Assembly: GCA_039588295.1 (NCBI GenBank)
Contig: JBDHAB010000034.1
Location: 1-48,207 of the forward strand
DNA: 48,207 bases
Source: Gemmatimonadota bacterium
GTDB lineage: Bacteria; Gemmatimonadota; Gemmatimonadetes; Gemmatimonadales; GWC2-71-9
Direction of reading: 5' to 3'
Below are positions 13,170 through 47,435 of the stretch, piece after piece. The notes under the pieces are model-generated. The model searched no databases and was not told the DNA's origin. It saw nothing but the letters and a program-made list of their open reading frames with translations. The first letter of the stretch is position 1, and each line of letters begins with the position of its first letter. Made by a program: the position numbers and the translations under genes.

Positions 13170-13585
13170 CGGGAGGCGCTGGATGGACCCAGATCTTCTA
13201 GACCCAATCGGATCGGGTGGAAACTGAAGAGACGACATCTTGCCGGTGTATCGAGGAACTACGGGCGTCGGCGCCGCACCTCGACCCGCGTAAGCCGTGC
13301 TCCGCCGGGAAAAGCGAGCCCCCGAACGAGTCCCACCACTTCGCAAGGGGCGGTGTTCAGGGGCCGGGGTGTACTGCGTTGGCCGACGAATGTGTCTCAG
13401 AAACGAACTGCGGCGCTCAGATTCCTGCGGGCTTCATGGTTCGTTCGGGATCGTCTCGTACTGCTGGCAGAACGCGCCACGGAGAGGTGCACCGAGCGTT
13501 GTGCGCATGATCGGGCCATTCTGTTAAGTGAGCGTTGTTGACAGAGTCGACCTACTCCCGAAAGCCTGAATCCCAGGTCCCTGAA

Positions 13586-14446
13586 TCAACTGAAGGCCAG
13601 CTCAGCATCGTAATGAAGCGCCGCCGCACCCAATATGGCGACGTGCTCGAGTTCTGAGACTTCAATCTTCAGAGACCTGATGGAATTTGAAAAAGCAAAG
13701 GAGCGTATCGACTCCCACATAGCTTCCTTGAAGAACCGAAAGGCCTTACGAACGGATCCCCCCAGAACAATTATCTCCGGATCGTAAGCATAGAGAATCG
13801 TCTTGATACCATGACCCAAGTGATGACCGAACTCTGCGAATATCCTCACCGCCTCACGGTCACCTTCTACTGCTCTCCGAAAAACCTCTGCGCCTGTTTG
13901 CGCAACGTGACGAGTAAAGAATTGTCCCGAACAATAATACTCATAGATGCTTTCCAAATACGGAATCATGCCGAACTCACCCGCTCCACAATTCATCCCC
14001 GGATACAACCTGCCATCGACGATGATTCCTCCGGCGAAACCCGTCCCCACAATGAGTCCAATTGCTGATTGATATCCGACACCTTTCCCAAAATGCTTTT
14101 CGCCCAGTGCAAAGCAGTTGGCGTCATTGTTGACCAAAACTGGAACGGAGTACCTTTCTTCTAGTATCGATTTGAGGGGCACTTCGCGCCAGGATGGGAT
14201 GTTCTGTACGTCGTACACGATACCCTCTTCGATATCCACCACACTGGGCACACCGATCCCAACGCCGTCAACATCCTCTAGCTTCGTCCGATCGATCAGC
14301 CCGCAAAGTTGGTCCAGGACCTCCTCGTCCGACCCATTTGGATTGATTGGCATCGACGACACGTCCCCGAGCTGCTGATTACGCACCAATGCAGCGCGAG
14401 CGTTCGTCCCTCCCAAATCAACCCCAATGATATTGCTCTTTGCCAT
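13586..14446 (-). CDS. ROK family sugar kinase (glucokinase-like)
   Basis: Motifs IGVDLGGTN, GIGVP, NNDANCFALGE, GTGFAGG and AGEFG. It lacks the CxCGxxGC zinc motif. Confidence 0.92.
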   Translation of the reverse strand: MAKSNIIGVDLGGTNARAALVRNQQLGDVSSMPINPNGSDEEVLDQLCGLIDRTKLEDVDGVGIGVPSVVDIEEGIVYDVQNIPSWREVPLKSILEERYSVPVLVNNDANCFALGEKHFGKGVGYQSAIGLIVGTGFAGGIIVDGRLYPGMNCGAGEFGMIPYLESIYEYYCSGQFFTRHVAQTGAEVFRRAVEGDREAVRIFAEFGHHLGHGIKTILYAYDPEIIVLGGSVRKAFRFFKEAMWESIRSFAFSNSIRSLKIEVSELEHVAILGAAALHYDAELAFS

Positions 14447-14485
14447 TGCTCTCAAATCCGCAGGTGACCATTCCTGGGTCCTCGC

Positions 14486-15742
14486 TCAAACAACTTCCTC
14501 TTTCCGAAATCCGATCGTGACGTTCTTGATCAGAGGCTTGGCCCAGAAACCGATACTGAGGATGTAGCCCATGGTCAAGTAGAGGAACAGCATGCCGTTC
14601 CGCAAGCCAAAGAGATCACCGAGTCCACCAACAATCAGCGGCACAATGGCGCCCCCGATGATGGCGGTTACCAGTATCCCTGAAAAACTGCCATGGTGCT
14701 CCGCAACAGAATTGAGCGCAAGGGAGAATATCACCGGGTACATGACTGCGGAGAAGAAGCCAACCAAAGGAAATGCGATTACAGCCACGGAGCCGGACAT
14801 AAACAGGGCCGCGGTGAGGCTGATAATCGCACCAATGGTGAATAAAACCAGCACTACTTTGCTATCGAGCAATTTCAACAACACGATACCCGCGATACCG
14901 CCAATGGTCATCAGACCCCAGAACCAAGCGACGGTCGTAGCGCCGGTCGTTTGTGGATCGTAGCCATGGTATGCGTTCAGAAATTCAGAAATCCAGTTTG
15001 CAACACCCTGCTCAAGCCCGACATATGTGAAAATCCCCAGGAAGAACAACAGGACAGTTGGATTCTTCAGCAAACCCAGGTGGGTTGTGAAAGCGCCGAC
15101 CTGCTCGTCAACTTTTCGCTCGACCTCGGGGATTCTCGAGATACACACAATCCCGACCATGAGAAGAGCAATGATGGCAAAGAGCCAATAGAGAGATATC
15201 CAGGGGATCTCTTCAGGAACGACCCTCGATAATGTCGTGATCAGCAGGTTCGAATCGGCAGACCCTCTCTCCAGATTGAGCACCAGATATGAATACACAA
15301 GGGGACTGATGAAGGACGCGGCACCGAAAATCAACTGGGCCACTGTAGCGTTGAAGGCGAAGTGCTCTTCTCCGCCGGCCTCCCGCAACAGAGGGTTAAT
15401 CGCGACCTGAAGCATGGCCATGCCGGAGCCTATGAGAAACAGGGAGCAAATAGCGGTCAGATAGTTCGGGAACAACGCCAACATCGATGAGCCCACAAAC
15501 GCTATGGCGAAGGCGGCGACCATGACCGGTTTTTCCTGGAACTTCTCAATCAGCAGTCCCGCCGGAATTGACATGACGCCATAAGCAATGAAGAACGCAA
15601 ACGGCAGCACGGCGACAAGCGTGAGGCTCAAATTGAAATCATCGATGATCTCGGGGACGAGAGGACCAATGATGTTTGTCAGAAATGAGATGACAAAGAA
15701 GGTCAGGAAAATGAGGCCGACGACAAAGTAGCTTCTGCGAAT
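14486..15742 (-). CDS. MFS sugar transporter (FucP/GluP-like), probable ATT start
   Basis: About 12 TM helices with LQVAINP, YVGLEQG and AIIGGAIVP. The frame extends 37 codons beyond the track start to ATT at 15742, which is 7 nt after GGAGGG. An in-frame TAG lies at 15800-15802. Confidence 0.88.
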
Positions 15743-15809
15743 TGTCTTACCCTCCGCTTTATGGTGATGTCTCGTGCCAGGTCCTCTGCCAGCGCCCTCC
15801 TAGAAGGCC

Positions 15810-15965
15810 GATGGCTCGTCACGAAGGCCACGCGGCGACTATCAGGCGACCATGAGGGAACGTTGATAGTACCCTGACCGTCTTGGAAGGGCGACGTCAG
15901 ATCGCGTACTGGACCATCGCGCACGTCCATGCGACGAAGCTTGACCTGCTTGCCGAGATGGAAAG
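15810..15965 (-). pseudogene. C-terminal remnant of a TolB/PD40-repeat protein
   Basis: KQVKLRRMD...[20 protein letters not shown] is a typical final PD40 blade. The sequence upstream of it is not homologous. Confidence 0.6.
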
Positions 15966-16252
15966 GCCGAAGTAGGGGCCGAATTCGCATGCGATGCCAA
16001 GCGAGTACGCTTGAAGTCCCACCCGCAGCAGGGCCTTTCTCACGCGGAGTGGATACCCCGATCGCTTCGAGGAGAGGTAGGAGACCGACCCACCGGGGTG
16101 GTTCGCAGTCGCACGTGGCGAACCCCACACACACGTTCGCACACCACGGATTTGGGACGTCAGCGGGAGCGTTGCCGGGGCGTCGCTCTGACGGGACACG
16201 CGGGTCGCGATCTCGCCAAATCAGGGATTCTGGATTTGTTACGGAACCGGTG

Positions 16253-17238
16253 CTAGATCTCCTGCACCCCCCACGCCTTGTTGATGCTCTCCCAGGTGAT
16301 CACGTTCGGCTTTACGAACGGCCGCCGTACGTTCTCCAGTTTCTCTCCCCTCACTTCAACATCGCTCACGCTCGCGGGCCCCAGGCCCGCGCGGTACGCC
16401 CATGCAAAGGTGGGCACTTCGTGCACCCCGAATCCCATGATGTCGGCCGTGACCATGTCGGTGGCCAGTGGGTTCGTTCCCGCGATGATCACGTTCATCG
16501 GAACCAGCCTCCCACCCGTCGGGCCGTCTCCTTCCATCGCCATCGAGCCGTCCACGACAGTGAGCCCGAGCCTGTTGGCGCGGACCATGTCGATCGTCTC
16601 GAAGGCAATGCCCGGCGACTCGGCCATGGCCGCTTGGTCGTGCAGCCACGACCTGACCGAGTAGTAGACCGTTCCAGGATACAGGCCAATCAGGTTCTTC
16701 ATGCCCAGCGTCACGGTCGCCAGTACGTGGGTCTTCATCATCGGAACGTGAGCGGAGTCCGCAGGGAGCCGGCAAGGTCGGTGTAGCCGAGGGTGTCGAA
16801 CACGTACTGCTGCATGCCATCCAGTATCTCGCGGTTCCGCGTCCTGTAGGTGACAGCGTCCCGGACGTTGAATCCGGTTCCCGCGGCCGATCCTTCACCG
16901 ATCAGCACTTCTTTTCCCGACCGCTGCATGAGTTGGGCGAGCGTTCTCACCACGCTCGGTTTGGTCGTGAAGGCCGGACCCTCGGCCACCAGGTTGGGCT
17001 TGAGCATGATCCGGTCTTTGCCCTGTGCCACCGTCTCCATACCTCCGAGGAGGTCAATGGCCGCTTCGACTGCAAGATCGACCCTGTCGTTCCCGATCCT
17101 TACGACGCTGACGACCGGCTTCTCTCCTGTGGACCGGTCCCCGTACCACGCTGGCGTCAGGCCTCCGGCGGCGGTCCCGAGAACCACGCCGGCACTCGTC
17201 TTCACGAAGTCCCTGCGTGACAGATGTCTGTGTCTCAT
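16253..17238 (-). pseudogene. Tat-exported DUF362 family protein, split by an internal deletion/frameshift
   Basis: The 5' ORF (16738-17238) has an SRRDFVK Tat motif, MLKPNLV, TTKPSVV and IGEGS. The 3' ORF (16253-16741) has (VP)MMKTH...TLGMKNLIG, MEGDGP and NPLATD. The two halves are in different frames. Confidence 0.8.
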
Positions 17239-17320
17239 ACGGATTCCTCCCGGTCGTCGGGCACGGGTGTCTGCGTTGCCTGCCGTTCCCTACGGGGAGG
17301 TGAGCGAGACGGTTTCCGGG

Positions 17321-17382
17321 CGACGTCACCGCTTGCATCCGGAGCCGAAGGTCCCGCGTGGCTCCCTCCTTGCGCCCTACCC
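17321..17382 (+). repeat. att-like repeat copy A
   Basis: The core at 17334-17362 (TGCATCCGGAGCCGAAGGTCCCGCGTGGC) is 25/29 identical to the core of copies B/E. It shares the GACGTCACC lead-in with D/E and a GCTC..CCCTACCC tail with copy B. Confidence 0.8.
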
Positions 17383-20300
17383 TGTCACTCGTGTCTGCTC
17401 CCCAGCGAGCCTGCGCTTCTGGTGTTGAGCCGCCTGGTACATGAAGGTGCGAACGATGGCCTCGCGGTTGGGCTGGAAGGTGCCGTCGTAGACCGAATCC
17501 ATGTAGGGAATCTGCAGCCTGTCCAGAATGGGCTTGAGAATCGCCGAGCACATGATGGATGGCATACAGGTGAAAGGAAACACGTTCACCACACCGTCAA
17601 AGCCCGCAGCCGCGTACTCGAGAGCGCCGCCGATACTCAGTGCCGCCTCCGTGCCGACCCGGAAGGAGAAGATGCGGTCGCTGTCGAGCTGCTTCTCAAT
17701 GCGGCCAATCCGGTGGTCTCGGTGAATGGCAAGGCGCCTCCTTACCTTCCGGTAGGCCTGCTGCGACCGGAGATACTGGTACGTCAGGCGAGTTCCGTGG
17801 AGGAGCCAAGCTCGCAGCTCGCGGCCACAGAGGCCAGGATCCCGGAGGTGAATGGCGCCGGCGATGCCCCTCGCCGCGTTATGCATGAGGCGGTGTGAGA
17901 CATAGTCGAGCCACTCAGCGACGGACGAGTTTACGACCTCGGCGCCGTGGCTCTCCAGGAGCCGTATGAGATCCTGGTTCGATGGCACGTGACTCCGTAG
18001 ATAGATCTCACCCACTATGCCAATGAGAGGTTTCGGGCCGATAGTCGGGTCGATGAGGTCCCGCCCTTGGGCGGCGATTTCCTCGAGTGCGTTCATCACC
18101 TGCCGAGACCCATTGGTGCGAGCGTGGCGCTCGAAGATCCCCTCCATGCTCGTGAGTGCCTGGTCGAAATACGCGTCGGCCTGTCCGCGGTCTCTCTCAT
18201 AGGGTCGCACGCACCAAAGCATTCGATCCAGCACATCGCCAACGACCGTGGCCAGGTATCCCACCCTCCTGAAGCGAGCACGCAGTTCCGGCCTCATCAG
18301 GCCGCCGACGGCGTAGCCGTCCTCCGACGTGAGAGAGGCAATGCGCGTCTCGCCGAAGTCTTCCAGCGAGTCGAGGATGATGCGGTGCAGCTTGCCGTAC
18401 ATGCCGAAGCGGCATGGCCCGCCGGTCTCGGCCATGCAATAGAGGTAGTTCCCCGAGTTGAAGGAGTCGCCCAGACGCGCCTTGTCACCCTTTAGGTGGT
18501 GGAGCACGTCCCCCAGAGTGATCTGGCACGGAAAACACTCCTTGCCCGACGTGAACTCCTTGCCCAGGGAGAGACCCTTGTAGCTCTGCATGACCTGGGC
18601 ATCGACACCGAAGCCTCTGAAGGCGGCAGCAATGAGTCGGCTGCCTGCACGGCTCATCTCTGGAATGAGCAACGTCTTATCGGCCAGGCTGAACTTGCCA
18701 ACCTTGTCCCTCAGCGAGTCAAACTGGCCCGCCACTCGACGTTCGGGCACGGCCACGACCGTACGCCCCTCGCATTGCTGGAGGCCCGCGCGTTGCTCGT
18801 TCCGAATGACGTTGGCGAACGCTTCCAGCCGGGTCACCACTCCTGCCACCGCGGTGTGCTCGTCGAACTCGAGGATCAGATAGGGTTTTGGCTTCATGAC
18901 GTGGCGGTAGAAATGCTCCACGAACGAGTCCGCGCCACAACTGAAGTTCGTGAGGTGCACACCGTAGGCACCGGGGTGTTCCTTGATCAGCTTGGCCGTG
19001 CGGAGAATCTGCGCGCCAAGGCCCCAGTACATGTTGGGGAAGTCACTCAGGTCCACGCCAGCCGTATCCAGGAAGTCCTGAGGAATCGCCTCAATCCCCA
19101 GCTTCGCCAGACGCTCACCCAGATGGAGATTCAGCCGCTCATCGTAGAGGTTGTAGGGCCTGCCGCTCACCGCGATCCAGAACTGGTCTGGGCCCAAGGA
19201 GTCAAGGAACTCTCGACCTTGCTGCAGGAGTTCACATTCGAACGCCCGCTGCACCTCCAGCGCATCCCGAAACGAGTGTTCGACCTGTCGCCGGCTCAGA
19301 CCCAATTGCCTGCCGAGGGTGCGGTGCAGATCGCCGGCGACCTGATCCACGGAGGCGTTCAGGCAGACCGTTGGTGACAGCAGCGCATCTCGTGGGATGT
19401 CGATGGCCGCCCTGGCCATGTACTGGCTGCCTTGTACCAGGGGGCAGTAGAAGCCCGTTTCCTCCCGCCGCGGAGTGGGCATGGTGATGACGGTCGGGAG
19501 GAACAGCCAGCGCGTCAGCCGCCTGAGGACCTCCACGTGGCCGTGGAACACTTTGATGGGATAGCAGGCCTCGGCGATCGTGGACTCAACGCCCGCCATG
19601 GCAACCTGCTGCGTCGTCTTGGGGGAAAGCACTGGGGTGAAACCCAGGTTGTCCCAGAAGCGAGTCCACAGCACGCCGAATTGGAGGATATGGAGGCCCC
19701 GGGGGATGCCGATGGTGGGCCCACCGTTCCCGCGGTCCCACGCATCCCGGGACGCATCACCGAGCACTCCTAGCTCTGCCGCATCGACGCAGTGGCCTTT
19801 CAGGTACTCCGTGAAGAGGGTCTCGCGTTTCTTGAACCAGTTGACCTTCGCCTTCCCCCGAGCACGCCTCATCTCGTAGCGGCCGCACTCCCCTCCCCAC
19901 ACGCTCTTGCGACCGCCGAAATCATAGACCTTCAACTTGCACGCGTTGTGGCAGTCCTTGTCGGCCCGGCAGACCTTCTCGGTGACCGAGACCGTGGCCT
20001 GGGCGAGCGAAGCGAGGGGCGGATGCGGGGACGGTCGCCTCTCTCCGGTAACCCGGCTTTCCATGAGGCTCAAAGCGGCGCCGTGGGCTCCCAGCACCTC
20101 TCGGTGCCCAGGGACGAGAATCTCCTGGCCCAACACGTTCTCGAAAGCCGCCACGACACCCATGTTCAGCGACGGACCGCCGAGGAACATGACGCGCTTA
20201 CCAATGCGGCGCTTCTGGACGACGCGATTGAGGTAGTTGTGGACGATGGCGTAGCAGAGACCGGCCAGCAAATCGTCAAGCCGGGCGCCTTGCTGAGCGT

Positions 20301-21840
20301 AGGACAGCAGGTCGGACTCCATGAACACGGTGCAACGCTCGGTCAGGCTGATAGGGCTTTCGGAGGAGAGCGCAATCTCCTGGAACTCCCTCACGATGTT
20401 GACCCCCAGCTTGTTGGCCAGCTCGTGCAGGAAGCTCCCGGTGCCCGCGGCACACACCTTATTCATGTCGAAGTCAAGGGGGTTGCCGCGCTCGATCCAG
20501 ATGTACTTGGAGTCCTGGCCGCCGATTTCGAAGACCGTATCTACGCCCGGATCCCGGTGCACCGCAGCGCGGGCATGCGCGGTGATCTCATCAATGACCA
20601 GATCGGCGTCGACAAAGTCACCCACCACGTACCGCCCGGAGCCGGTGGTGGCCGTACCCAATAGCTCCAGCCCGTCCCGAAACTCCTCGTGTACCCCAGC
20701 GAGGAGGCCTTTCGTCACCTCGATCGGCCTTCCCTGCGTCTGAACGTACTGCTTGTGCACGATGGCGCCGTTCGCATCGATCAATACGGTCTTCGTCGTG
20801 GTGGACCCGACATCAATCCCCAGATAGGCCTGAAGCACGGAAGCCTGCGGCCGCAGCTGCGTGGGGATCACGGCATCATCAGTGAAGGTGGTCTTACGGA
20901 GTCGCAGAGCCGCGGCTCGTCGAAACTCACTGACCGCCTCTGGCGCGAGCGTCTCCAGGTCGGACACGAGCAGCCTCTGTCGCTCCTCCAGCTGGCGGGC
21001 GAACAGCGCTGCGCCCAACGCACCGACCGAGGTGTGATGAGGAGGTACGAGTAGCTCCGGGTAGTACCGCCGAAAGGCCTCAATCTGGAGCTCGTTGCTG
21101 GCGACGCCGCCGACGAATACCACGGGCCCCGCCACCTCGCGACTGGCGGCCAAGGTGCTGAGGCAGTTGGCAGCATTGCCCTGATGGAGGCCCGCAACGA
21201 TGTTTGCCAGCGGCTCGCCCTTGTTCTGCAAGTGAATCATGTCCGACTTGGTGAACACCGTGCAGCGGCAGGCAACAGGCGCGGGGCTGCCGCTCTGCTG
21301 CCCCAGCGCTATGAAATCGCTGAGAATCTGCGACACGCGCTCCTGCGAAAACGAGACGTGCTCGTCATAGATGGATGACGCGAGCCGTTCGGCTTGCTGA
21401 TCGATGAACGAGCCGGTACCCGCGGCGCATGGGCCGTTCATGGCAAAGGACTTCAGATGCCAGTGCCCATCCTCATGGCAGAGTCGGTAGAGTGCGGCGT
21501 CCTGACCGCCCATGGTGATGATCGCACCGGCATGTGGCACCAGGTGGACTGCGCCGAGCAACTGCGTGATGGAGTCGTACTCGTAGGGGACGCCAAGTCG
21601 TGCAGCGCTGATCTTCCCATGGTTGCCGGTGAACGCGAGCTTCTCGATCCGGTCGGAGCCAAACCGCTCCAAGACCGTTCGCAGGACCGCGATGGTGTGA
21701 GGTACAATCCTACCGAAATGCCGCTGGTAGGGGTGTTCGTAGACCAGCTCGCTGCGCGCGTCCAGGAGCACACAGTTGATGCTCACCGATCCGACGTCGA
21801 TCCCAACCGTGTACACGCGGCCGCCTCCGTCTGGGGCCAA
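17377..21840 (-). CDS. Acyl-CoA dehydratase activase-like multidomain protein (two BcrAD/BadFG ASKHA ATPase domains + DUF2229 + dehydratase-like C-terminus)
   Basis: Two sets of GIDVGS, GGQD and CAAGTGSF motifs, RCTVF twice, then CYPIK, FSCGADSF, ECFPC, GPCRFGMY and PFTCMP. GGAGG lies upstream of the TTG start. Confidence 0.92.
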   Translation of the reverse strand: MAPDGGGRVYTVGIDVGSVSINCVLLDARSELVYEHPYQRHFGRIVPHTIAVLRTVLERFGSDRIEKLAFTGNHGKISAARLGVPYEYDSITQLLGAVHLVPHAGAIITMGGQDAALYRLCHEDGHWHLKSFAMNGPCAAGTGSFIDQQAERLASSIYDEHVSFSQERVSQILSDFIALGQQSGSPAPVACRCTVFTKSDMIHLQNKGEPLANIVAGLHQGNAANCLSTLAASREVAGPVVFVGGVASNELQIEAFRRYYPELLVPPHHTSVGALGAALFARQLEERQRLLVSDLETLAPEAVSEFRRAAALRLRKTTFTDDAVIPTQLRPQASVLQAYLGIDVGSTTTKTVLIDANGAIVHKQYVQTQGRPIEVTKGLLAGVHEEFRDGLELLGTATTGSGRYVVGDFVDADLVIDEITAHARAAVHRDPGVDTVFEIGGQDSKYIWIERGNPLDFDMNKVCAAGTGSFLHELANKLGVNIVREFQEIALSSESPISLTERCTVFMESDLLSYAQQGARLDDLLAGLCYAIVHNYLNRVVQKRRIGKRVMFLGGPSLNMGVVAAFENVLGQEILVPGHREVLGAHGAALSLMESRVTGERRPSPHPPLASLAQATVSVTEKVCRADKDCHNACKLKVYDFGGRKSVWGGECGRYEMRRARGKAKVNWFKKRETLFTEYLKGHCVDAAELGVLGDASRDAWDRGNGGPTIGIPRGLHILQFGVLWTRFWDNLGFTPVLSPKTTQQVAMAGVESTIAEACYPIKVFHGHVEVLRRLTRWLFLPTVITMPTPRREETGFYCPLVQGSQYMARAAIDIPRDALLSPTVCLNASVDQVAGDLHRTLGRQLGLSRRQVEHSFRDALEVQRAFECELLQQGREFLDSLGPDQFWIAVSGRPYNLYDERLNLHLGERLAKLGIEAIPQDFLDTAGVDLSDFPNMYWGLGAQILRTAKLIKEHPGAYGVHLTNFSCGADSFVEHFYRHVMKPKPYLILEFDEHTAVAGVVTRLEAFANVIRNEQRAGLQQCEGRTVVAVPERRVAGQFDSLRDKVGKFSLADKTLLIPEMSRAGSRLIAAAFRGFGVDAQVMQSYKGLSLGKEFTSGKECFPCQITLGDVLHHLKGDKARLGDSFNSGNYLYCMAETGGPCRFGMYGKLHRIILDSLEDFGETRIASLTSEDGYAVGGLMRPELRARFRRVGYLATVVGDVLDRMLWCVRPYERDRGQADAYFDQALTSMEGIFERHARTNGSRQVMNALEEIAAQGRDLIDPTIGPKPLIGIVGEIYLRSHVPSNQDLIRLLESHGAEVVNSSVAEWLDYVSHRLMHNAARGIAGAIHLRDPGLCGRELRAWLLHGTRLTYQYLRSQQAYRKVRRRLAIHRDHRIGRIEKQLDSDRIFSFRVGTEAALSIGGALEYAAAGFDGVVNVFPFTCMPSIMCSAILKPILDRLQIPYMDSVYDGTFQPNREAIVRTFMYQAAQHQKRRLAGEQTRVTG

Positions 21841-21961
21841 TCCGCTATCCGTTACCTCCGCAGGAGAGAGGAGGACAGGCTGGCCACCTACAAGAACCTA
21901 CCGATGAGCAGTGAGTGCGGAAGACCAGTGGCGGGACGTGCGGACGATCGACCCACCACGG

Positions 21962-22124
21962 ACCGTCACCGTCATTGTAACAATGCGCACTGACGCTCAC
22001 AGACGCCAATCGACGCCAAACACCCCAAACGCACCCGACAGACCGACGCCCACTGACAGTCACGGGCATCACCATCTTCCTCCGGAGCCAAAGGTCGCGC
22101 GTGGCTCGCTCCCGCACCCTACCC
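21962..22124 (+). repeat. att-like repeat copy B (longest)
   Basis: Arm ACCGTCACCGTCATTGTAACAATGCGCACTGACGC, several GACGCC-type units, then the core TTCCTCCGGAGCCAAAGGTCGCGCGTGGC at 22077-22105. Confidence 0.9.
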
Positions 22125-22236
22125 CACCACTCGCGAGCGCTGCGCACCAACCGCGCCAGGCGCACGGCAAGTGAGGACTTCACAGCGGCGGACGGACGAG
22201 GTTCCTACAGTGCAAGTAGCGGCGCAGGAGGCTCCG

Positions 22237-23322
22237 TCAGGAGTTCGGATCCGGCCGGCATTTGCGCATGATGTCCCGCTCGACCCGGTCCGGATCGTTG
22301 ATGACCTCGTAGAACTCGTCGAGCATCTCCACACTGTTCTGCAAGCGGTCCGGATCCAGGTCGGCCTGGGAGCGGAACAGGTCGAAGATCACCTCCCGCC
22401 GCTCGTTGAAGAGCGGAAACACCGCTTCGATCTCCTCGCGAGGGCGGCAGATGCCCCAGTAACGCCGCTCCTGGACGCTGCGGACCCGGAGCTTGCGATG
22501 GGGCCGCGCATAGGGGGGCGCGACGATGCCGGCCCAGTCGAAATCGTACGGTACGGGTACCACCACGAACTGGGCGAGCGAGCCGATGGGCAGGGTGTTG
22601 TGGCAGCAATAATCGCCCGGCTCCGGAGCAAAGGGGTCAAAGTCGCCGTTGGCCATCATGAACTGGAAGACTTCGAACAGTACCAGCGGTCCCTGCTGCA
22701 TCTGGTCCGGGAGCACGGCCGGTACCTCCAACACGTTCCACCCGTTGCGGGCGGCCATCGCGTCCGCATCTTCGATGAAGAACGCGTACTTCGTGATCGG
22801 GTCCCGTTCACCGTCGGTATCGAGGTAGGTGATATGGGCCAGGCGGACCCGAAAGCTCACCTCGGTGAACAGACGGTACGTGCGGTACACCAGGTACTCC
22901 AGCAGCAGGTATTGCTCGTATTCGTCCCGCCGGTCCTGGCAGTGCGTCACCATCTTGATTCTGTCCTGACCGGCGAAGACGGTGCCTTCCACTTGCGTCT
23001 TGCGGAAGTTCACCCGGAGCGGAGGGAAACCGCAGATACGCTCCTGCAGGCGGAAGGACCCGCGCGTGCGGAGCTTGATGTCGAAGGACGTGACCATGCC
23101 GCCGGGCGCCTGGTAGTGCAGCACCGCGTCGTATGACACGGGGTCCTCCTCACTCCGCTCATCGAGTACGTGATCGAGCGGCGCTTCGATGGTCAGGATC
23201 AGCGGGTCGTGCGACGTGAAGAGCGGCGCAAGCGCGGGAGCGGTGGAATCCCCCGGCTCCTGGGCCACGAGCGGACCGGCGACAAGGCCGGCCAGGCTCC
23301 AGATCAGCACACGATGCGACAT
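22237..23322 (-). CDS. Secreted conserved hypothetical protein, CotH-kinase-like motifs
   Basis: Signal peptide. Motifs KLRTRG, LLEYLVY, FFIED, NGD...HN and PVPYDFD. The CDS is secure but the function is inferred. Confidence 0.75.
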   Translation of the reverse strand: MSHRVLIWSLAGLVAGPLVAQEPGDSTAPALAPLFTSHDPLILTIEAPLDHVLDERSEEDPVSYDAVLHYQAPGGMVTSFDIKLRTRGSFRLQERICGFPPLRVNFRKTQVEGTVFAGQDRIKMVTHCQDRRDEYEQYLLLEYLVYRTYRLFTEVSFRVRLAHITYLDTDGERDPITKYAFFIEDADAMAARNGWNVLEVPAVLPDQMQQGPLVLFEVFQFMMANGDFDPFAPEPGDYCCHNTLPIGSLAQFVVVPVPYDFDWAGIVAPPYARPHRKLRVRSVQERRYWGICRPREEIEAVFPLFNERREVIFDLFRSQADLDPDRLQNSVEMLDEFYEVINDPDRVERDIMRKCRPDPNS

Positions 23323-23613
23323 CTCGGTCCCCCCAGCATCTCCCCCTCAGTCTCCCGCGAGTGGATGGTGCCCGCCCGTGCATTCGCGTCTGTAGCGAGA
23401 ATTACTATCCCACTCACGGCGCTGGCGAGCACGTGAGTGGTTTGCATCAGCACCCTAGACCGCCCCTGTAGGATCTACGGCATCGACGCTCCCGCGGTTT
23501 CGTCGTCGGGCGGGCGTCGTACCGCGGCGGCGGCAGGGAGGCCACCGACACGCGAGCGTGAGCGTGCAACCTTCTAAGGCAAGCGTCGCACTTTGGATTC
23601 GGCGTCTTCGCCA

Positions 23614-23684
23614 ATCGTCACCGACACTGTCACCACGCCCACCGACGCAAAAGCCAAGCATGCTGAAACCGTCGCCCGGTGGCT
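23614..23684 (+). repeat. att-like repeat copy C (arm conserved, core degenerate)
   Basis: ATCGTCACCGACACTGTCACCACGCCCACCGACGC aligns with the arms of B, D and E. It ends GTCGCCCGGTGGC. Confidence 0.7.
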
Positions 23685-23736
23685 ACGTAGAGGTGGAGTC
23701 CTCATCTCTCTCGACGCCGCACCTGGAGTGTGTGCC

Positions 23737-25566
23737 ATGCGATATGGCCGATTGATTGCCGCCACCTCGTTAATCTCCCTGCTCGCCCTCGCGTCCCGAC
23801 CGGGAGTCGCGCAGACGGCGAACGCCGGCTCCACGGCCTCCGTTTCCGAGCTTCGCTACGATGTCACCTTCGATAGCGGGACGGCGGAGAGCCGGCACAT
23901 CCACGTGACGATGTCGTTCCGGATCGCCGGCAGTGAAGCGGTGCTCCTCTCGCTTCCGGCGTGGACCCCAGGGTCGTACGAGCTCGACAACTTTGCCCGC
24001 TTCATCAGGAACTTCGCGGCGAGAAGCGGGGACCGCGCCCTTCGCTGGGACAAGACCGACGGGGATACGTGGCGCGTCCACCTCGAGGGTGAGTCAGCCG
24101 TCGAGGTGAGCTTCGACTACCGGGCCGACACGCAGGACGTCGGCATGGCCTGGACTGCGCCGGACTTCGCCTTTTTCAACGGCACCAATCTGTTCTTCTA
24201 CCCGGAGGAGCACGGCCTCGAGCTTCCCGCGCGCGTCGTCTTTCACACGGACGACGGGTGGCGCATCGCCACTGGCCTGACGGCGGCGGCGGAGCCGGGC
24301 GAGTTCACCGCCTCCGACTATCACGAGCTGGTCGACATGCCGACGCTGATCGGCCGGTTCGATCTCGATAGCCTGCAGATTGAGGGACGGTGGTACCGGC
24401 TCGCCACCTATCCGGTAGGTGCCCTCGCGGGGGAGATGCGGGAGGATCTGTGGGAACAGACCCGACGCATGATGCCGCCGATGTCCGCCGTCTTTGGCGA
24501 GACGCCGTGGGACACGTACACCACGATGGCGGTGTTCGACGACGACTACCCCGGAGCGAGCGCACTTGAGCATCGGAACTCGCACCTCGGCGTCTACGTC
24601 ACACAGGCGATCGGGAGCCCGTTCCTCCCGTCGGTCCTGGCCCATGAGATCTTCCACGCCTGGAACGTGAAGCGGCTGCGGCCGACGGAAATGGTGCCGT
24701 ACGACTACGGCCGGGCACAGCCCACGACCCTCCTGTGGGTCAGCGAGGGAATCACCGACTACTACGCCGACCTCGCCATGGTGCGTGGGGGCAATTGGGG
24801 GCCGGAGCACTTTTACCGGGCCACGGCCGACAAGATGGGGACGGTGGCAAACTCGCGCCCTGTCGCTTTGGAGGATGCGTCGCTCTCCACCTGGATCGCG
24901 CCAGCTGACGGGACGGCGTACCTCTACTACCCCAAAGGCTCGCTCGCCGGGTTCATGCTCGACGTTGTGATTCGCGACGCCTCGGACAACACGCGCTCGC
25001 TGGACGACGTGATGCGCGAGCTGTACGACGGCACGTACAAGGCTGGTGAGGGCTTCAGCGAGGCGCAGTGGTGGGCGGCGGTGCGCCGCGCTGCCGGCGG
25101 GAGGTCGTTCGAGGAATTCCATGCCCGCTTCATCGACGGCCGAGACGCGTATCCGTGGGAAGAGATACTCCCGCTGGCGGGCCTCGAGCATGCCATCGAC
25201 TCGGTGTTCGCTCCGCGCATCGGGGTGTCGCTAACTCAGGACAGCGGCGGAACGCGGGTCACGCAAGTCACGCCGGGGAGCGCGGCGGCGGCGGCGGGAG
25301 TGGCGCCGGACGACTACCTCCTCCGTGTCGGCGAGGTGGACGTCGACAACCCCGACTGGGCTGACGCCTTCCGCGCGCACTATGCCCAGGCTCGCGAGGG
25401 TACTCCGTACGAAATTGTGGTTCGGCGGGGTGCAGAGATGCTGACCCTGCAGACTCACATGCGCTTCGCGCCGCGCGTGTCCCGAGAGTTGCGGGAAGAC
25501 TCGAACGCGTCACCGAAGGCGGTCCGGATCCGTCAGGGGCTGCTCACCGGAGTGGTGGGTCGGTAG
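23737..25566 (+). CDS. M61 glycyl aminopeptidase with C-terminal PDZ domain
   Basis: GGAG before ATG at 23737 and a signal peptide. Motifs LPAWTPGSY, ALEHRNS, HEIFHAWNVKR, LWVSEGITDYY and YYPKG, then a PDZ-like IGVSL...VTPGSAAAAAG. Confidence 0.93.
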   Translation: MRYGRLIAATSLISLLALASRPGVAQTANAGSTASVSELRYDVTFDSGTAESRHIHVTMSFRIAGSEAVLLSLPAWTPGSYELDNFARFIRNFAARSGDRALRWDKTDGDTWRVHLEGESAVEVSFDYRADTQDVGMAWTAPDFAFFNGTNLFFYPEEHGLELPARVVFHTDDGWRIATGLTAAAEPGEFTASDYHELVDMPTLIGRFDLDSLQIEGRWYRLATYPVGALAGEMREDLWEQTRRMMPPMSAVFGETPWDTYTTMAVFDDDYPGASALEHRNSHLGVYVTQAIGSPFLPSVLAHEIFHAWNVKRLRPTEMVPYDYGRAQPTTLLWVSEGITDYYADLAMVRGGNWGPEHFYRATADKMGTVANSRPVALEDASLSTWIAPADGTAYLYYPKGSLAGFMLDVVIRDASDNTRSLDDVMRELYDGTYKAGEGFSEAQWWAAVRRAAGGRSFEEFHARFIDGRDAYPWEEILPLAGLEHAIDSVFAPRIGVSLTQDSGGTRVTQVTPGSAAAAAGVAPDDYLLRVGEVDVDNPDWADAFRAHYAQAREGTPYEIVVRRGAEMLTLQTHMRFAPRVSRELREDSNASPKAVRIRQGLLTGVVGR

Positions 25567-25741
25567 GCCCGTAGCCGCCAGCCCCCGAGCAGACCGCGGC
25601 GCGGCGCGCGTGTTGCCTATCCTCTTCCTCGGTGTGCCGGTGTCACCACCTTTCTCGAGTGGTTCGAAGAACTCTGAGGCCTGGCCCAGCCATGACCACC
25701 CCGACACGCGGAACGACATCCACAACGGACAGGGGGTGAAC

Positions 25742-26959
25742 ATGCGACGGGTGGCTACGATGGCCTTCGTCCTGGCCTCGGCATGCGGCGAGGACGGCAA
25801 CCAGCTGACCGCCTCGGTATTCCGCGATAGCGCGGGCATCCGCATCGTCGAGAACCGGGATGTGGGATGGGAACGGACGGCGGAATGGTCGCTCTCGGCA
25901 GAGGCAGTGCTGCAGATCGGCGCGCTGGACGCTGAGCCGGCGTACCAACTCCACCGCGTCATCGGAGCGGCGACTCTGTCCGACGGCAGAGTCGTAGTCG
26001 CCAACGGCGGATCCCAAGAACTCCGCTGGTACGACGCGGCAGGGCTTCACGAGGGCAGCGCTGGCGGCGCCGGGGAAGGCCCGGGGGAGTTCGCCGGGCT
26101 GATGGCAATCGGCCTTCTCCCAGGGGATTCGATCGTCGCACACGACGTGCGGTTGCGGCGCCTCTCGGTGTTCGACCCAGCCGGCCGGTTCGTGCGCTCC
26201 ACTTCCTTAGTGACCGAAGGGCACGCCGGCATGGCGTTCGCGGCACTCGCCGGAACGCTCACCGACGGCTCCCTCCTCATGGCGGGCCGCGTGTTCCCGA
26301 TGGACGGGGCGGTCGAGGGACCACTCCTGGCTCCGATGCCGCTCTACCGGTACGGGACCGACGGCCAGCTGCGGGACTCAGTCGGCACGTTCCACGGGTG
26401 GGAGGCGACAACGATTGTCCGGCGCACAACGGAGTTCGTCGGGATGGCCATGGCAGACCGGCCATTCGGGCGCAGTACCTCCGTGACGCCGGCCGGGGAG
26501 CGGATCGCTATCGGCACGCCGTTCGCGTTTTCATTCGAGCTGTTCGAGCCGGATGGAACGCTGCGCGCGATGGTCCGACTGGATCGCGCCAACGACCCAG
26601 TGACCGCGAACGACATCGCCGCGTACAAACGCACCCTCCTGGACAACCCACGGGACCCAGCCGGTCAGCAGGCCCTGCAACGCCAGGCGGACGAGTCGGA
26701 GTATCCCGACACCAAGCCAGCGTACGCGGCCGGTCTCAAGGGAGACCGGGCCGGCAACATCTGGGTGCCCGCGCACCAAATCGCACGGGACCTAGCGACC
26801 CGCTGGTCCGTGTTCGATCCCGACGGGCGCTATCTCGGCGACCTTACCAGTCCGGCTCGGTTCCGGGTGTTCGAGATTGGCGACGATTACGTGCTGGGCG
26901 TGTGGCGCGACGATCTCGACGTGGAGTATCTCCGGAAGTACCAGCTTCGCAAGCCATGA
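25742..26959 (+). CDS. 6-bladed beta-propeller (NHL-like) lipoprotein
   Basis: LASAC lipobox, RDSAGIRIVEN, GEGPGEF, DRAGNIWV, WSVFDPDGRYLG and DDLDVEYL. Confidence 0.82.
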   Translation: MRRVATMAFVLASACGEDGNQLTASVFRDSAGIRIVENRDVGWERTAEWSLSAEAVLQIGALDAEPAYQLHRVIGAATLSDGRVVVANGGSQELRWYDAAGLHEGSAGGAGEGPGEFAGLMAIGLLPGDSIVAHDVRLRRLSVFDPAGRFVRSTSLVTEGHAGMAFAALAGTLTDGSLLMAGRVFPMDGAVEGPLLAPMPLYRYGTDGQLRDSVGTFHGWEATTIVRRTTEFVGMAMADRPFGRSTSVTPAGERIAIGTPFAFSFELFEPDGTLRAMVRLDRANDPVTANDIAAYKRTLLDNPRDPAGQQALQRQADESEYPDTKPAYAAGLKGDRAGNIWVPAHQIARDLATRWSVFDPDGRYLGDLTSPARFRVFEIGDDYVLGVWRDDLDVEYLRKYQLRKP

Positions 26960-26970
26960 CCGCCCCAGGC

Positions 26971-27051
26971 ACCGTCACCGGCGTTGTGACAACGCCCGCC
27001 GACGCCCACGGACGTCACCGTGTTCCTCCCGAGCCAAACGTCCGGCGTGGC
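26971..27051 (+). repeat. att-like repeat copy D
   Basis: Arm ACCGTCACCGGCGTTGTGACAACGCCCGCCGACGCCCACGGACGTCACC plus a core at 27023-27051 that is 25/29 identical to B/E. Confidence 0.88.
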
Positions 27052-27151
27052 TAATAGGAAGTCGAACCCCCCCTCGGTGGCTGGCGACGCGGTTCCGGCT
27101 CGCGGGTCCTTGGGACCAGCGAGCACCGTGCGAGCCCCCACCCCTACGGCA

Positions 27152-27949
27152 TCACACGTCCTTCCTCTCGAACCACGCGAACGCCAACGCCATGCAGACC
27201 AGACCTGCGATAGCCAGTACGGCGAAGTGGACCAGGGAGGTTTCCCCTGATACCGCCGATTGAATCGGCCGGAAGTAGCGGAAGGGACTCACCCAGCGAA
27301 GCCAGGCGAGCCACGCCAGCCGCGCTCCGAACACGTCCACGAGGTAGAGAGTCAGTGCTAGCCCTACGATCCGCGCTACTGCCGGGCCGCGCCGCGCCGC
27401 CGTTGCACCGATGAGCAGCGCGATTCCCGCAAACGCGAACAGCAGGAATCCCAGCCCGACCGCACTCATCACGTACCTGGTCCAGGCGGGCTCGCCGGGG
27501 ACACTGACTGTCGCGAGCCCAACCATGCCACCGAGAAGCAACGCGACCGGGAAGACAGCAACGCCGACCAGGGCCAGCGCGAGCACGCCTGCGAGGTAGC
27601 GCCATCGCGGAATTGGCCGCGCGAGGAACAGCTCCAAGAGACCGCCCTCCCGCTCAGCGGCGGGAATCGTACCTGCGGCCACGACAAACGCCAGACCGGC
27701 GCCGATCATGGCGGGATGCTGAAACCCGAAAGCAATGGCCGCGCTGAGGGACGCCAGCGCGAGCTGCTCGCCGAACATGGTCTGCACGGCTCGCGGCATT
27801 ATGCGCACCAGGTCGCCGAATCCGGAACCCGTATCCACCGCAGCCGCAACCTGCACGAACAGCAACTCGGCCGCAGCAGCAGCAGCACACAACGCCGCAA
27901 ACAGTCGCCGGTGGTGGCGCAGGTTGCGAGCGAAGGCCCCACCCATCAT
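27152..27949 (-). CDS. ABC-2 type transporter permease
   Basis: Six TM helices, AEREGGLLELFLARPIPRWRY, SPFRY and FERKDV. ATGA overlap with the ATPase gene. Confidence 0.9.
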   Translation of the reverse strand: MMGGAFARNLRHHRRLFAALCAAAAAAELLFVQVAAAVDTGSGFGDLVRIMPRAVQTMFGEQLALASLSAAIAFGFQHPAMIGAGLAFVVAAGTIPAAEREGGLLELFLARPIPRWRYLAGVLALALVGVAVFPVALLLGGMVGLATVSVPGEPAWTRYVMSAVGLGFLLFAFAGIALLIGATAARRGPAVARIVGLALTLYLVDVFGARLAWLAWLRWVSPFRYFRPIQSAVSGETSLVHFAVLAIAGLVCMALAFAWFERKDV

Positions 27950-28875
27950 GCCGACGGCTCCCCGTTCCGGCGATAGTAGCGCACGAAGGCCTCCTCGAGA
28001 TCAGGCTCGGGGAACACCATATGCTCAACCGAGTGCCGCGCGAGCACGCCGAGCAGGGGATCCAGCTCGCCCGAAACGGTGAGCTCTACCAGCGCCCCGT
28101 CTGTCCGGAGGGTGCGCACTCCCGGTAGCTTCAGCTCGGAAACCGGCGCGGCTCCGGCGAACCGCACCACCATCTTCCGCGCAACCGTGCGGCGCAGCTC
28201 CTCCACCCGCTCGACGGCCACCAAGCGGCCCTCACGCAGAATCCCCACGCGGGTGCACGTGCGATCGACCTCCGTCAACACATGAGAGGAATGGAATACT
28301 GTCCGACCGGACCGGCGCGCCTCGGCCAACAGCTCGAAGACCACCTCGCGCACCAGTGGATCGAGACTGCTGGTCGGCTCGTCGAGAATCAGCAGGTCGG
28401 GATCGTGCTGGAATGCCGCGACCAGTCCGAGTTTCTGCTTGGTGCCGCGCGAATACTCGCGGATCGGCCGACCCAGATCGCGCACCGCCAGACCCACACG
28501 CTCGCACAACTCGGCGCGCCGGCGTGGATCCGTGGCTGGAGCGGCGCGTGACCTCAGCCCATCGAGGAACACCAGCATCCGGGCTCCAGTAAGCCGCTCG
28601 TCCAACGCGAGGTCGCCAGGCAGGTAACCCGTCGCGCACCTCGTCTCCGGGTCTCCTGGCGAACGGCCGAAGATCCATGCCTCTCCGCGCGTCGGCCGGA
28701 TCAGGTCGAGCAGCAGCCGGATGGTGGTGGTCTTGCCGGCACCGTTGGGACCGAGGAAGCCAAACACCTCGCCGCGCTCGACGGAGAACTCGAGCGCGTC
28801 GACGCCGACTGTGCCACCATAGTGCTTGGTGAGATCGCGAACGGCGATGACGGGCGCCACCGGATCACGCGTCAA
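27946..28875 (-). CDS. ABC transporter ATP-binding protein
   Basis: Walker A GPNGAGKTT, signature YSRGTKQK, Walker B LILDEP and H-loop SSH. Confidence 0.95.
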   Translation of the reverse strand: MTRDPVAPVIAVRDLTKHYGGTVGVDALEFSVERGEVFGFLGPNGAGKTTTIRLLLDLIRPTRGEAWIFGRSPGDPETRCATGYLPGDLALDERLTGARMLVFLDGLRSRAAPATDPRRRAELCERVGLAVRDLGRPIREYSRGTKQKLGLVAAFQHDPDLLILDEPTSSLDPLVREVVFELLAEARRSGRTVFHSSHVLTEVDRTCTRVGILREGRLVAVERVEELRRTVARKMVVRFAGAAPVSELKLPGVRTLRTDGALVELTVSGELDPLLGVLARHSVEHMVFPEPDLEEAFVRYYRRNGEPSA

Positions 28876-29077
28876 GCACGCTTCCCTTGGTGAACCCGGT
28901 GCGCCTAAGAGTCGTGGGCCGCAGTAGTTCCCCTACCACCGAATCCCCGCCTTCATGACAACGTCTTTCAGCCCCCGGGTCGACGAGGGCGTCCTTGAGG
29001 CAACGGCCTCGGTTCACTCACCGCATAAGATGGGGCCCGGATCGGTGGTGGGCCAGCAGCTTCAGCGGCGGCGAGGA

Positions 29078-29147
29078 TTGTCACTGACATTATCACACCG
29101 CCCACCGACGTCACCATGTTCCTCCGGAGCCAAAGGTCGCGCGTGGC
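29078..29147 (+). repeat. att-like repeat copy E
   Basis: Arm TTGTCACTGACATTATCACACCGCCCACCGACGTCACC. The core at 29119-29147 is identical (29/29) to copy B. Confidence 0.9.
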
Positions 29148-47041: not shown

Positions 47042-47435
47042 CGGCGTCGGAGATCGCGCCGCGCCGCCGCGAGCGGCACCATGCAGCGGAAGCAAGCGTC
47101 TGCCGGCACACGTGGCACAAGCGCACCGCGCGAGCTGTGGCCTCCGCCTCGTCCGCGCAGGAACGCGTGGTGTACGGCAGGTCCTCATGTAGAAGTGTGG
47201 TGCGCGGGCGCTCACTCGCTGACCGCCTGGTCTTTCCAGCCCTCCCGTGGCATTCTACGTCTGGTTCTGTCACCTTTTGTCAGAACTGAAACCTGTAGTG
47301 TGGTCCACCGCTCCCCTGCAGCTAGCCGGTGCCGTTGTCATCAGCAAGGATCAGTAGTCCGGTTTCGGCAGCAGCACAGGGACCACGAGTCCTTCGTCAG
47401 GTGGCACGTTCGGAACTCCCGAAACGGAACTCGAA

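Follow-up and report, generated by a model that had tools for sequence, protein, structure and literature searches.

Co-oriented repeats derived from tRNA-Arg(CCG) in a Gemmatimonadota contig: probable att junctions of accreted islands

Integrons carry rows of co-oriented sites that separate units of one or two genes, with the recombinase encoded outside the array; their attC sites are palindromic and their enzyme is IntI. Other related systems are outlined here from the accessible portions of the cited papers. In streptococci, CIMEs have lost their integration genes, have kept their att sites, and stack in tandem at a single target gene (PMC5704250). At the ssrA locus of Dehalococcoides, many direct repeats of the target-gene end lie within 100 kb, additional conserved sequence accompanies the repeat, and 15 islands lack an integration module (PMC3146451). 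The tycheposon islands of Prochlorococcus contain partial tRNAs, newer elements displace older ones, and captured flanking DNA remains after an element has excised (bioRxiv 10.1101/2020.12.28.424599). Islander recognizes islands by a tRNA gene and its displaced 3' fragment; anticodon-centred sites are its most common class (2083 of 3919), one integrase is required per island, and only four tandems of three or more are recorded (PMC4383910).

The window analysed here is a stretch of 48,207 nucleotides that makes up an entire contig (C34) of a Gemmatimonadota assembly of 4.5 Mb in 160 contigs (G000). A first-pass annotation had offered two readings of an array of repeats in this window, as scars of serial island accretion or as an integron-like system that reuses its modules; the former proves to be the better option and the latter is not supported. 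The principle of accretion is already known, and what is newly described is a defined integrase–att pair in Gemmatimonadota together with an unexplained insert in the tRNA T-loop. None of the literature matches listed gives an account of these Gemmatimonadota sites or islands, and no description of the T-loop insert or of a tRNA-based cassette array was found in a literature of which subscription journals were thinly covered. The accessible parts of PMC9897764 and bioRxiv 10.64898/2026.01.13.699239 contain nothing specific to these sites.

Repeat copies, host tRNA and integrase

All five same-strand copies that had been reported are present on the + strand, at 17321, 21962, 23614, 26971 and 29078, and the identities given for them are reproduced, with a 29-mer identical at 22077 and 29119 and matched in 25 of 29 bases at 17334 and 27023. 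Their lengths and parts are unequal, and only the copy at 21962 is nearly full-length (∼21964–22190). When all copies are aligned, the full unit is ∼230 bp long; it begins with the arm pair, continues with 10-bp repeats in two groups and with the 3' half of the tRNA from its anticodon loop onward, and closes with a terminator-like hairpin. In short versions the middle of the repeat block is missing. The features of this part of the window are as follows.

16253–17238, − strand: DUF362 gene, in two separate frames, to the left of copy 1
17321–17405, + strand: copy 1, with one 10-bp repeat, a core at 17336–17359 (21/24 to the tRNA) and a decayed T-loop insert, lacking the arm pair and the tRNA tail
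17377–21816, − strand: module 1, a CoA-activase-family fusion protein of ∼1480 aa
21964–21981, + strand: copy 2, arm pair of two GT(A/C)AC units, predicted integrase arm-type sites
21982–22078, + strand: copy 2, spacer with two groups of ∼10-bp direct repeats flanking an A/C-rich stretch, the repeats being putative accessory-protein (excisionase-type) sites
22079–22102, + strand: copy 2, core from anticodon loop to T-stem, 24/24 to host tRNA-Arg(CCG)
22104–22146, + strand: copy 2, T-loop insert of 43 bp, from a family present in fragments of several tRNAs
22147–22190, + strand: copy 2, tRNA 3' end and left half of a terminator-like hairpin that is whole at other copies
22237–23310, − strand: module 2, a 357-aa protein of no known family with three paralogues in the genome at 50–55%
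23495–23609, + strand: second dispersed repeat, unrelated to the att unit, whose copy on C44 is matched by 12 other contigs
23616–23648, + strand: copy 3, arm pair and one repeat, core absent
23737–25566, + strand: module 3, first gene, an M61 aminopeptidase with a PDZ domain
25610–26959, + strand: module 3, second gene, a member of a multi-copy family with no Pfam match
26973–27051, + strand: copy 4, arm pair, shortened repeats and core at 27025–27048 (20/24), truncated right after the core
27152–28860, − strand: module 4, an ABC-2 permease and ATPase
29079–29147, + strand: copy 5, arm pair, shortened repeats and core at 29121–29144 (24/24), truncated right after the core

With up to four mismatches allowed, the 24-nt core matches the window four times, as compared with none for the same positions of the 51 other tRNAs of this genome and none for the core itself in 100 shuffled windows, which excludes chance. 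The copies at 21962 and 26971 are also represented, with 0–5 differences, in contigs of two public sequencing runs and are therefore not assembly artefacts. ARAGORN finds no tRNA gene in the window and Rfam gives no match there at E ≤ 1. The core had been described as diverging after its final T; what follows is in fact the T-loop insert, beyond which the tRNA 3' end resumes at 22147–22164 with 16 of 18 bases matching the host tRNA.

The host tRNA-Arg(CCG) gene lies on another contig (C54:6214–6287). Downstream of it are a terminator, arm-like repeats and then a tyrosine integrase (C54:4840–5943; PF00589, E = 2.6e-10) that adjoins the intact tRNA gene. At the position where its homologues begin, this integrase has no ATG, GTG or TTG. 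At the conserved columns of the family HMM it retains R, K, R, H and Y, presumably the tyrosine-integrase motif. A second integrase of the family, 54% identical and with the same arm pair, is found at tRNA-Ala in the same genome. Relatives at E ≤ 1e-40 occur in 21 of 151 family genomes, a tally that includes G156 and G091, and a tRNA is nearby at 21 of 24 integrase loci. None of the conclusions depends on these two genomes or on G021, which enters other tallies. When loci with a tRNA–integrase gap of <600 bp are compared (n = 20), the arm pair lies within the gap at 11 of the 13 with the integrase downstream, two of which are the host genome's own, and at 0 of 6 with the integrase upstream (0 of 7 before G156 is left out); in shuffles the figure is 7.8%. 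This position ties the arm motif to the integrase family and marks the arms as predicted binding sites.

Complete elements of ∼19 kb (G071) and ∼18 kb (G136) have ends composed of the arm pair, a spacer of 105–125 bp, the tRNA 3' half and the terminator. Since these integrase-bearing elements from two relatives share the end layout, the window copies correspond to attR-type junctions. The proposal that the repeats are att junctions from tRNA-Arg(CCG) is therefore sustained by the 24/24 match of the host tRNA to the core, by the adjoining tyrosine integrase and by the identity of the arm with the arm-type repeat found at loci of this family. The tRNA 3' fragment is identical to the host tRNA over 24 of 24 bases in two window copies and over 44 of 44 at a site on C65. 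Among the sites in the genome the repeat block is of two types and the T-stem has two alleles that differ by a compensatory change, and the copies therefore come from more than one donor; judged from sequence, the compensatory change points to separate donors whose tRNA halves were once functional. We consider it probable that the copies are decayed attR-type junctions left by accretion and decay, at tRNA-Arg(CCG), of islands of this tyrosine-integrase family, with crossover in the anticodon loop.

The window itself contains no integrase, as had been noted: its 36 ORFs searched against Pfam, the PF00589 search and the family HMM were all negative. Of the labels first assigned to the modules, those of CoA activase, M61 peptidase and ABC pair stand, while 'CotH-like' finds no support in Pfam or NCBIfam and 'propeller' corresponds only to a weak NHL-family match (E = 7e-4). 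Module sizes range from 0.9 to 8 kb. The DUF362 gene differs at 16748 from its relatives and from a copy on C69, which have ∼106 extra bases, and the orthologue in G004 of the gene at 25610–26959 is also followed by an arm remnant. One of the modules on C46 is a captured chromosomal piece with a truncated ispA-like end, an intact second dxs and a truncated NAD-kinase-like start, the two genes flanking dxs being what we take to be ispA-like and NAD-kinase-like; it is 76% identical to the resident chromosomal region, and its dxs is an example of the genes collected.

An insert in the T-loop of tRNA fragments

The insert lies between TT (or TG) and CRA of the T-loop without target duplication. 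It is structured, 34–78 bp in length, and occurs in fragments of several tRNAs. From the host genome and fetched loci we collected 24 distinct candidates, about four of them doubtful, as compared with two in the reversed genome. A 4-bp terminal stem is found in 17 of the 24 (2.6% of shuffles) and 12 bear a GNA or GNNA mini-hairpin in the opposite strand (1.4% of shuffles), rates that overstate the significance because both features were defined after inspection of the sequences. The insert stems covary. Identity to the inserts of Arg fragments is 64–82% for those found in Trp, Pro and Ile fragments, which equals the range within Arg (62–87%) and indicates that the inserts have spread across tRNA types. 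The clear cases inspected all lie in tRNA fragments, suggesting that insertion takes place independently, after a junction has formed, and that hits in working tRNAs are lost.

A genome carries about a dozen copies. A simple insert pattern matches in 16 of 201 family genomes, with four matches in the reversed control, so that many of these matches arise by chance; among 19 new matches inspected, five pass a strict rule and about nine look real by eye. Viral contigs gave two matches for the insert start, neither of them in a tRNA fragment.

Mini-hairpins of this kind are very stable in single-stranded DNA, and we would guess at a non-autonomous element that relies on a single-strand (HUH-type) enzyme for its movement. 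No enzyme for the insert was found in the searches, which returned one Y1_Tnp match, on C5. No insert lies in the 1.6 kb around that gene, as would be expected of a cognate HUH transposase flanked by the repeat, and it was set aside as the mobiliser since no tie to the insert was seen. We see an even chance that the insert represents an undescribed family of mini-elements whose target is GTT/CRA in tRNA loops and which persists in spare fragments alone. According to the accessible parts of two papers, PATEs, SMRs and CGTC-tagged REPs are likewise short, transposase-free and palindromic and make no target duplication; some of them target other mobile elements, and they have a GACG/CGTC stem (PMC3119063, PMC3733652). 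Those parts describe no tRNA T-loop target, and the inserts differ in having a variable long loop with a 3-bp mini-hairpin and in numbering no more than about a dozen per genome. The insert marks spent att sites and conceals them from island finders that look for tRNA fragments, and it points to an unknown enzyme that recognizes tRNA loops in DNA.

Sites elsewhere in the genome and in relatives

At least six further cores are present on four other contigs of the genome (three on C46, the others on C88, C65 and C11), with partial copies on C46, C4, C5 and C43. Contig overlaps were found only between C88 and C46 and between C34 and C11, and orientation is uniform across each pair, with six copies on C34 plus C11 and five, one of them partial, on C88 plus C46. 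Co-oriented tandem junctions without integration genes between them are observed in this genome. Fragments of other tRNAs are repeated for tRNA-Ser, tRNA-Ala and tRNA-Cys and single for others, which indicates a genome-wide habit.

The core pattern occurs in seven of nine genomes of the genus, with none in the reversed control, although some of these matches are the tRNA alone. In G024, a single contig carries tRNA-Arg(CCG) and, behind it, three co-oriented fragments at spacings of 6.6, 2.6 and 1.7 kb, and the array gives no match to the two integrase queries. In G024 and G002 a fragment lies downstream of the tRNA and shares its replicon and strand; in G004 and G008 this is doubtful. Pairs of sites lie 4.9 kb apart in G018 and 0.9 kb apart in G004, and two of three metagenome contigs bear arrays, with three and two sites. 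Arrays that lack an integrase recur in G004, G018, G024 and two metagenome contigs. Viral contigs gave no match for arm plus core.

One check suggested at the outset was whether the tRNA and an integrase flank this region. The tRNA match and the integrase beside the tRNA are confirmed; flanking is not demonstrable, as the window and the tRNA lie on separate contigs with no join seen, and relatives give mixed evidence. A linkage through two C11 genes, whose relatives lie 3–12 kb behind the tRNA in G001, G002 and G008, was dropped as weak because these genes are 70–80% identical, as compared with 89–96% for shared orthologues. The T-stem of the G004 tRNA-Arg is found at none of that genome's own sites. 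Upstream of the G004 site beside the block that starts at window position 47227, neither a tRNA nor a further site occurs for 33 kb, and G008 has solely a degenerate full-length copy in the 64 kb behind its tRNA. These G004 and G008 results indicate that junction-bearing pieces can end up away from the tRNA.

These observations bear on the idea that the junctions formed elsewhere, that island pieces were shuffled among flexible regions by homologous recombination or other elements, and that the window is a relocated fragment. The T-stem mismatch and the lone site in G004, which sits at the locus of the window's right end, fit such a history. So do the other neighbours and lack of a site at that locus in G001 and G002, the proximity of the first 3.2 kb of the window to a tRNA-Met fragment in G004, a copy of the DUF362 gene, 89–94% identical, on a contig with a tRNA-Ser fragment, and a partial site on C4 that lies upstream of the tRNA. 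Piecemeal transfer would not, however, be expected to produce the uniform orientation of the two contig pairs, and we regard relocation of this sort as unlikely; it would in any case alter only the place of the array and not the identity of the repeats. Under accretion and decay, the window stretch would have formed at the tRNA, and it may have been relocated later.

Accretion, cassettes and comparison with known systems

Accretion is anchored by what is observed of the tRNA identity, the unit layout, the tie between arm and integrase, the decay of the junctions and the arrays in relatives, and from these we infer the crossover point, the order of events and the mode of integrase loss. An incoming element would carry its own tRNA 3' half and so restore the gene, and each newer element would displace the older junction and its cargo away from the tRNA. 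The integrase-bearing part would later be excised or deleted, with the cargo remaining between junctions. Deletions would then wear down the junctions, and a small hairpin element would enter the T-loop of tRNA halves that had become dispensable.

Decay of the junctions is extensive. An uninterrupted tRNA half is present at one of ten scored junctions (C65), the other nine being broken or truncated, and downstream arm-like repeats are present at one of ten (C88) and absent at nine. G004 carries differently decayed remnants at three junctions that also occur in the window. At the DUF362/CoA activase junction, G004 retains the insert and tRNA tail while the window retains the core, and this is a single old junction that has decayed by two routes.

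Beside internal sites, the family HMM detects no integrase remnant. Plain decay should occasionally leave one, and this observation counts against accretion followed by decay.

Circular junction reads had been suggested as a check. In contigs of four sequencing runs no joint falls at a core, which is a weak test; the runs are represented by assembled contigs of related organisms, the best share is 0.35, and no RNA run was among those listed. In the run contigs a joint links 17266 to 23500, with 29 bases on one of its sides; the unrelated repeat at 23495, which follows DUF362 in C69 and G004 as well, accounts for it best. A piece joining 22038 to 17322 in run X2 was rejected as a junction because it can be another copy of the site.

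The alternative that the array is a working integron-like system holds that an integrase at tRNA-Arg or tRNA-Ala acts in trans to cut out small modules, devoid of an integrase from the outset, and to reinsert them as cassettes. The modules are indeed small, none has an integrase remnant, and the recurrence of integrase-less arrays in relatives and metagenomes would also be accounted for. Two G004 breakpoints lie in or just behind a site: one gene there retains the arm and then has a new neighbour, and a different site directly adjoins the block beginning at 47227. A potential enzyme exists in the tRNA-Arg integrase with its five conserved residues, and the tRNA-Ala integrase has an identical arm pair. 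However, the tRNA-Arg integrase lacks a start codon where its homologues begin, the modules lie in both orientations, the downstream arm repeats are absent at nine of ten junctions, and the four sequencing runs, weak as they are as a test, contain no joint at a core. Nor was any of the four window modules seen with sites on both sides among eight same-genus genomes, which are fragmented. A circle formed between two window sites would supply the tRNA with a 3' half that is interrupted or truncated, the state of nine of the ten scored junctions. By analogy with element integration as outlined in the accessible part of one source (PMC4383910), a module excised between these sites would thus be unable to restore the tRNA. 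We regard a working cassette system as improbable. A wider proposition is that integrases of this family maintain a stock of modules without integrase genes and move them between tRNA-derived sites, and that the T-loop insert, far from being damage, is a functional single-strand hairpin, folded and set at a fixed position, that locks or re-targets the used tRNA half; this seems to us equally doubtful.

That the unit is a self-mobile dispersed repeat of the MITE or REP type which incidentally contains tRNA sequence is very improbable, because, although copies are intergenic on several contigs and other dispersed repeats crowd the same regions, the scatter that had been named as grounds for rejecting att junctions is not seen: the copies are low in number and share one orientation within a contig, terminal inverted repeats are not seen, the arm motif is tied to an integrase family, and the layout equals the true element ends of the complete elements in G071 and G136.

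Accretion and decay provide a concrete route for the collection of accessory genes in sediment Gemmatimonadota, through a single family of integrases, an att unit of defined layout and several tRNA hotspots. At C65 the junction is intact and, together with the tRNA end, forms a testable pair of substrates.

With integrons, the array shares the row of co-oriented sites between one- or two-gene units and a recombinase located elsewhere. It is unlike them in that its sites are tRNA-derived and probably not palindromic attC, its enzyme is not IntI, its modules lie both ways and most of its sites cannot restore their target. No IntI with attI was found beside the array, and TIGR02249 scores above cut-off on C3 only, where it marks a true IntI. 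An attC scan found nothing anywhere, and because it was silent even at the C3 integron it is too strict; the copies align as tRNA-derived.

The likeness to the other systems, again as far as the accessible portions of the sources describe them, is closer in some respects than in others. Islander shares the tRNA with a displaced 3' fragment and the anticodon-centred site, but its filters would remove integrase-less arrays such as the present one (PMC4383910). As in CIMEs, tandem junctions from successive site-specific integration lack integration genes; CIMEs, however, retain attL and attR and are mobilized in cis with an ICE, whereas here the junctions are mostly damaged, the downstream arms are mostly gone, and retention of functional attL and attR, as judged by sequence only, was not found (PMC5704250). 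The ssrA arrays of Dehalococcoides have in common with this one direct repeats of the target end, conserved adjoining sequence and integrase-less islands, but they involve a serine integrase and the T-loop of tmRNA rather than a tyrosine integrase and a tRNA anticodon loop, and the T-loop insert, a feature here, is not mentioned for them in the accessible text (PMC3146451). Prochlorococcus islands resemble the array in their scattered partial tRNAs, displacement and captured DNA left behind; tycheposons belong to another phylum and probably to another integrase clade, and the modules here are without replication or packaging genes (bioRxiv 10.1101/2020.12.28.424599). In its working, then, the array appears to resemble CIME tandems, the Dehalococcoides ssrA arrays and the Prochlorococcus island model, and it is probably a known sort of gene-collecting hotspot, a live cassette system being unlikely.

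A second array of tRNA fragments

Six 3' fragments of tRNA-Ser(TGA) are distributed over contigs C44, C69 and C77 of the source assembly (G000), and several of the six carry T-loop inserts, the structured inserts of 34-78 bp found in the T-loop of tRNA fragments. Alongside the tRNA-Arg(CCG)-derived array in the window, these fragments make up another array of that kind. In other genomes, pieces of tRNA-Pro(GGG) at L185 (G007:C94) and L203 (G489:C6) have insert-like sequence after the anticodon loop, and a similar GGGT stretch is present at this site.

Other tRNA loci in the source assembly

The intact tRNA-Arg(CCG) is adjoined on C54 by a tyrosine integrase frame. At C54:6902-6939 (L001), a tRNA-Arg 5' half is joined to sequence that nearly duplicates the opening 25 bases of this frame, and a DUF4258 and MqsA-like gene pair lies between the fusion and the intact tRNA. 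The gene for tRNA-Arg(ACG), whole in relatives, is represented here by a 5' piece alone, and tRNA-Pro(CGG) is split by an element that bears an integrase of its own as well as a 5' fragment (C4:4673-4822 and C54:7037-8404 for the two genes jointly). ARAGORN makes 19 tRNA calls within 16 kb at C14:47647-63751, many of them adjacent pairs of the same isotype.

Dispersed repeat, a low-GC stretch, a captured dxs and an integron integrase

A dispersed repeat of ∼150 bp at window positions 23495-23609 is unrelated to the att unit; it recurs on 12 further contigs as well as in relatives, and its copies frequently lie beside att fragments. The low-GC stretch at window positions 13500-16000 (53-58%) contains ROK and MFS genes, whose neighbors differ in every relative examined. 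On C46, a second dxs, with 78% protein identity to the resident gene, lies within a captured piece whose two ends are both broken (17905-20620). Close to the end of C3, the frame at 777-1721 encodes a genuine integron integrase, which scores 393 bits against TIGR02249, accompanied by what looks like a first cassette.
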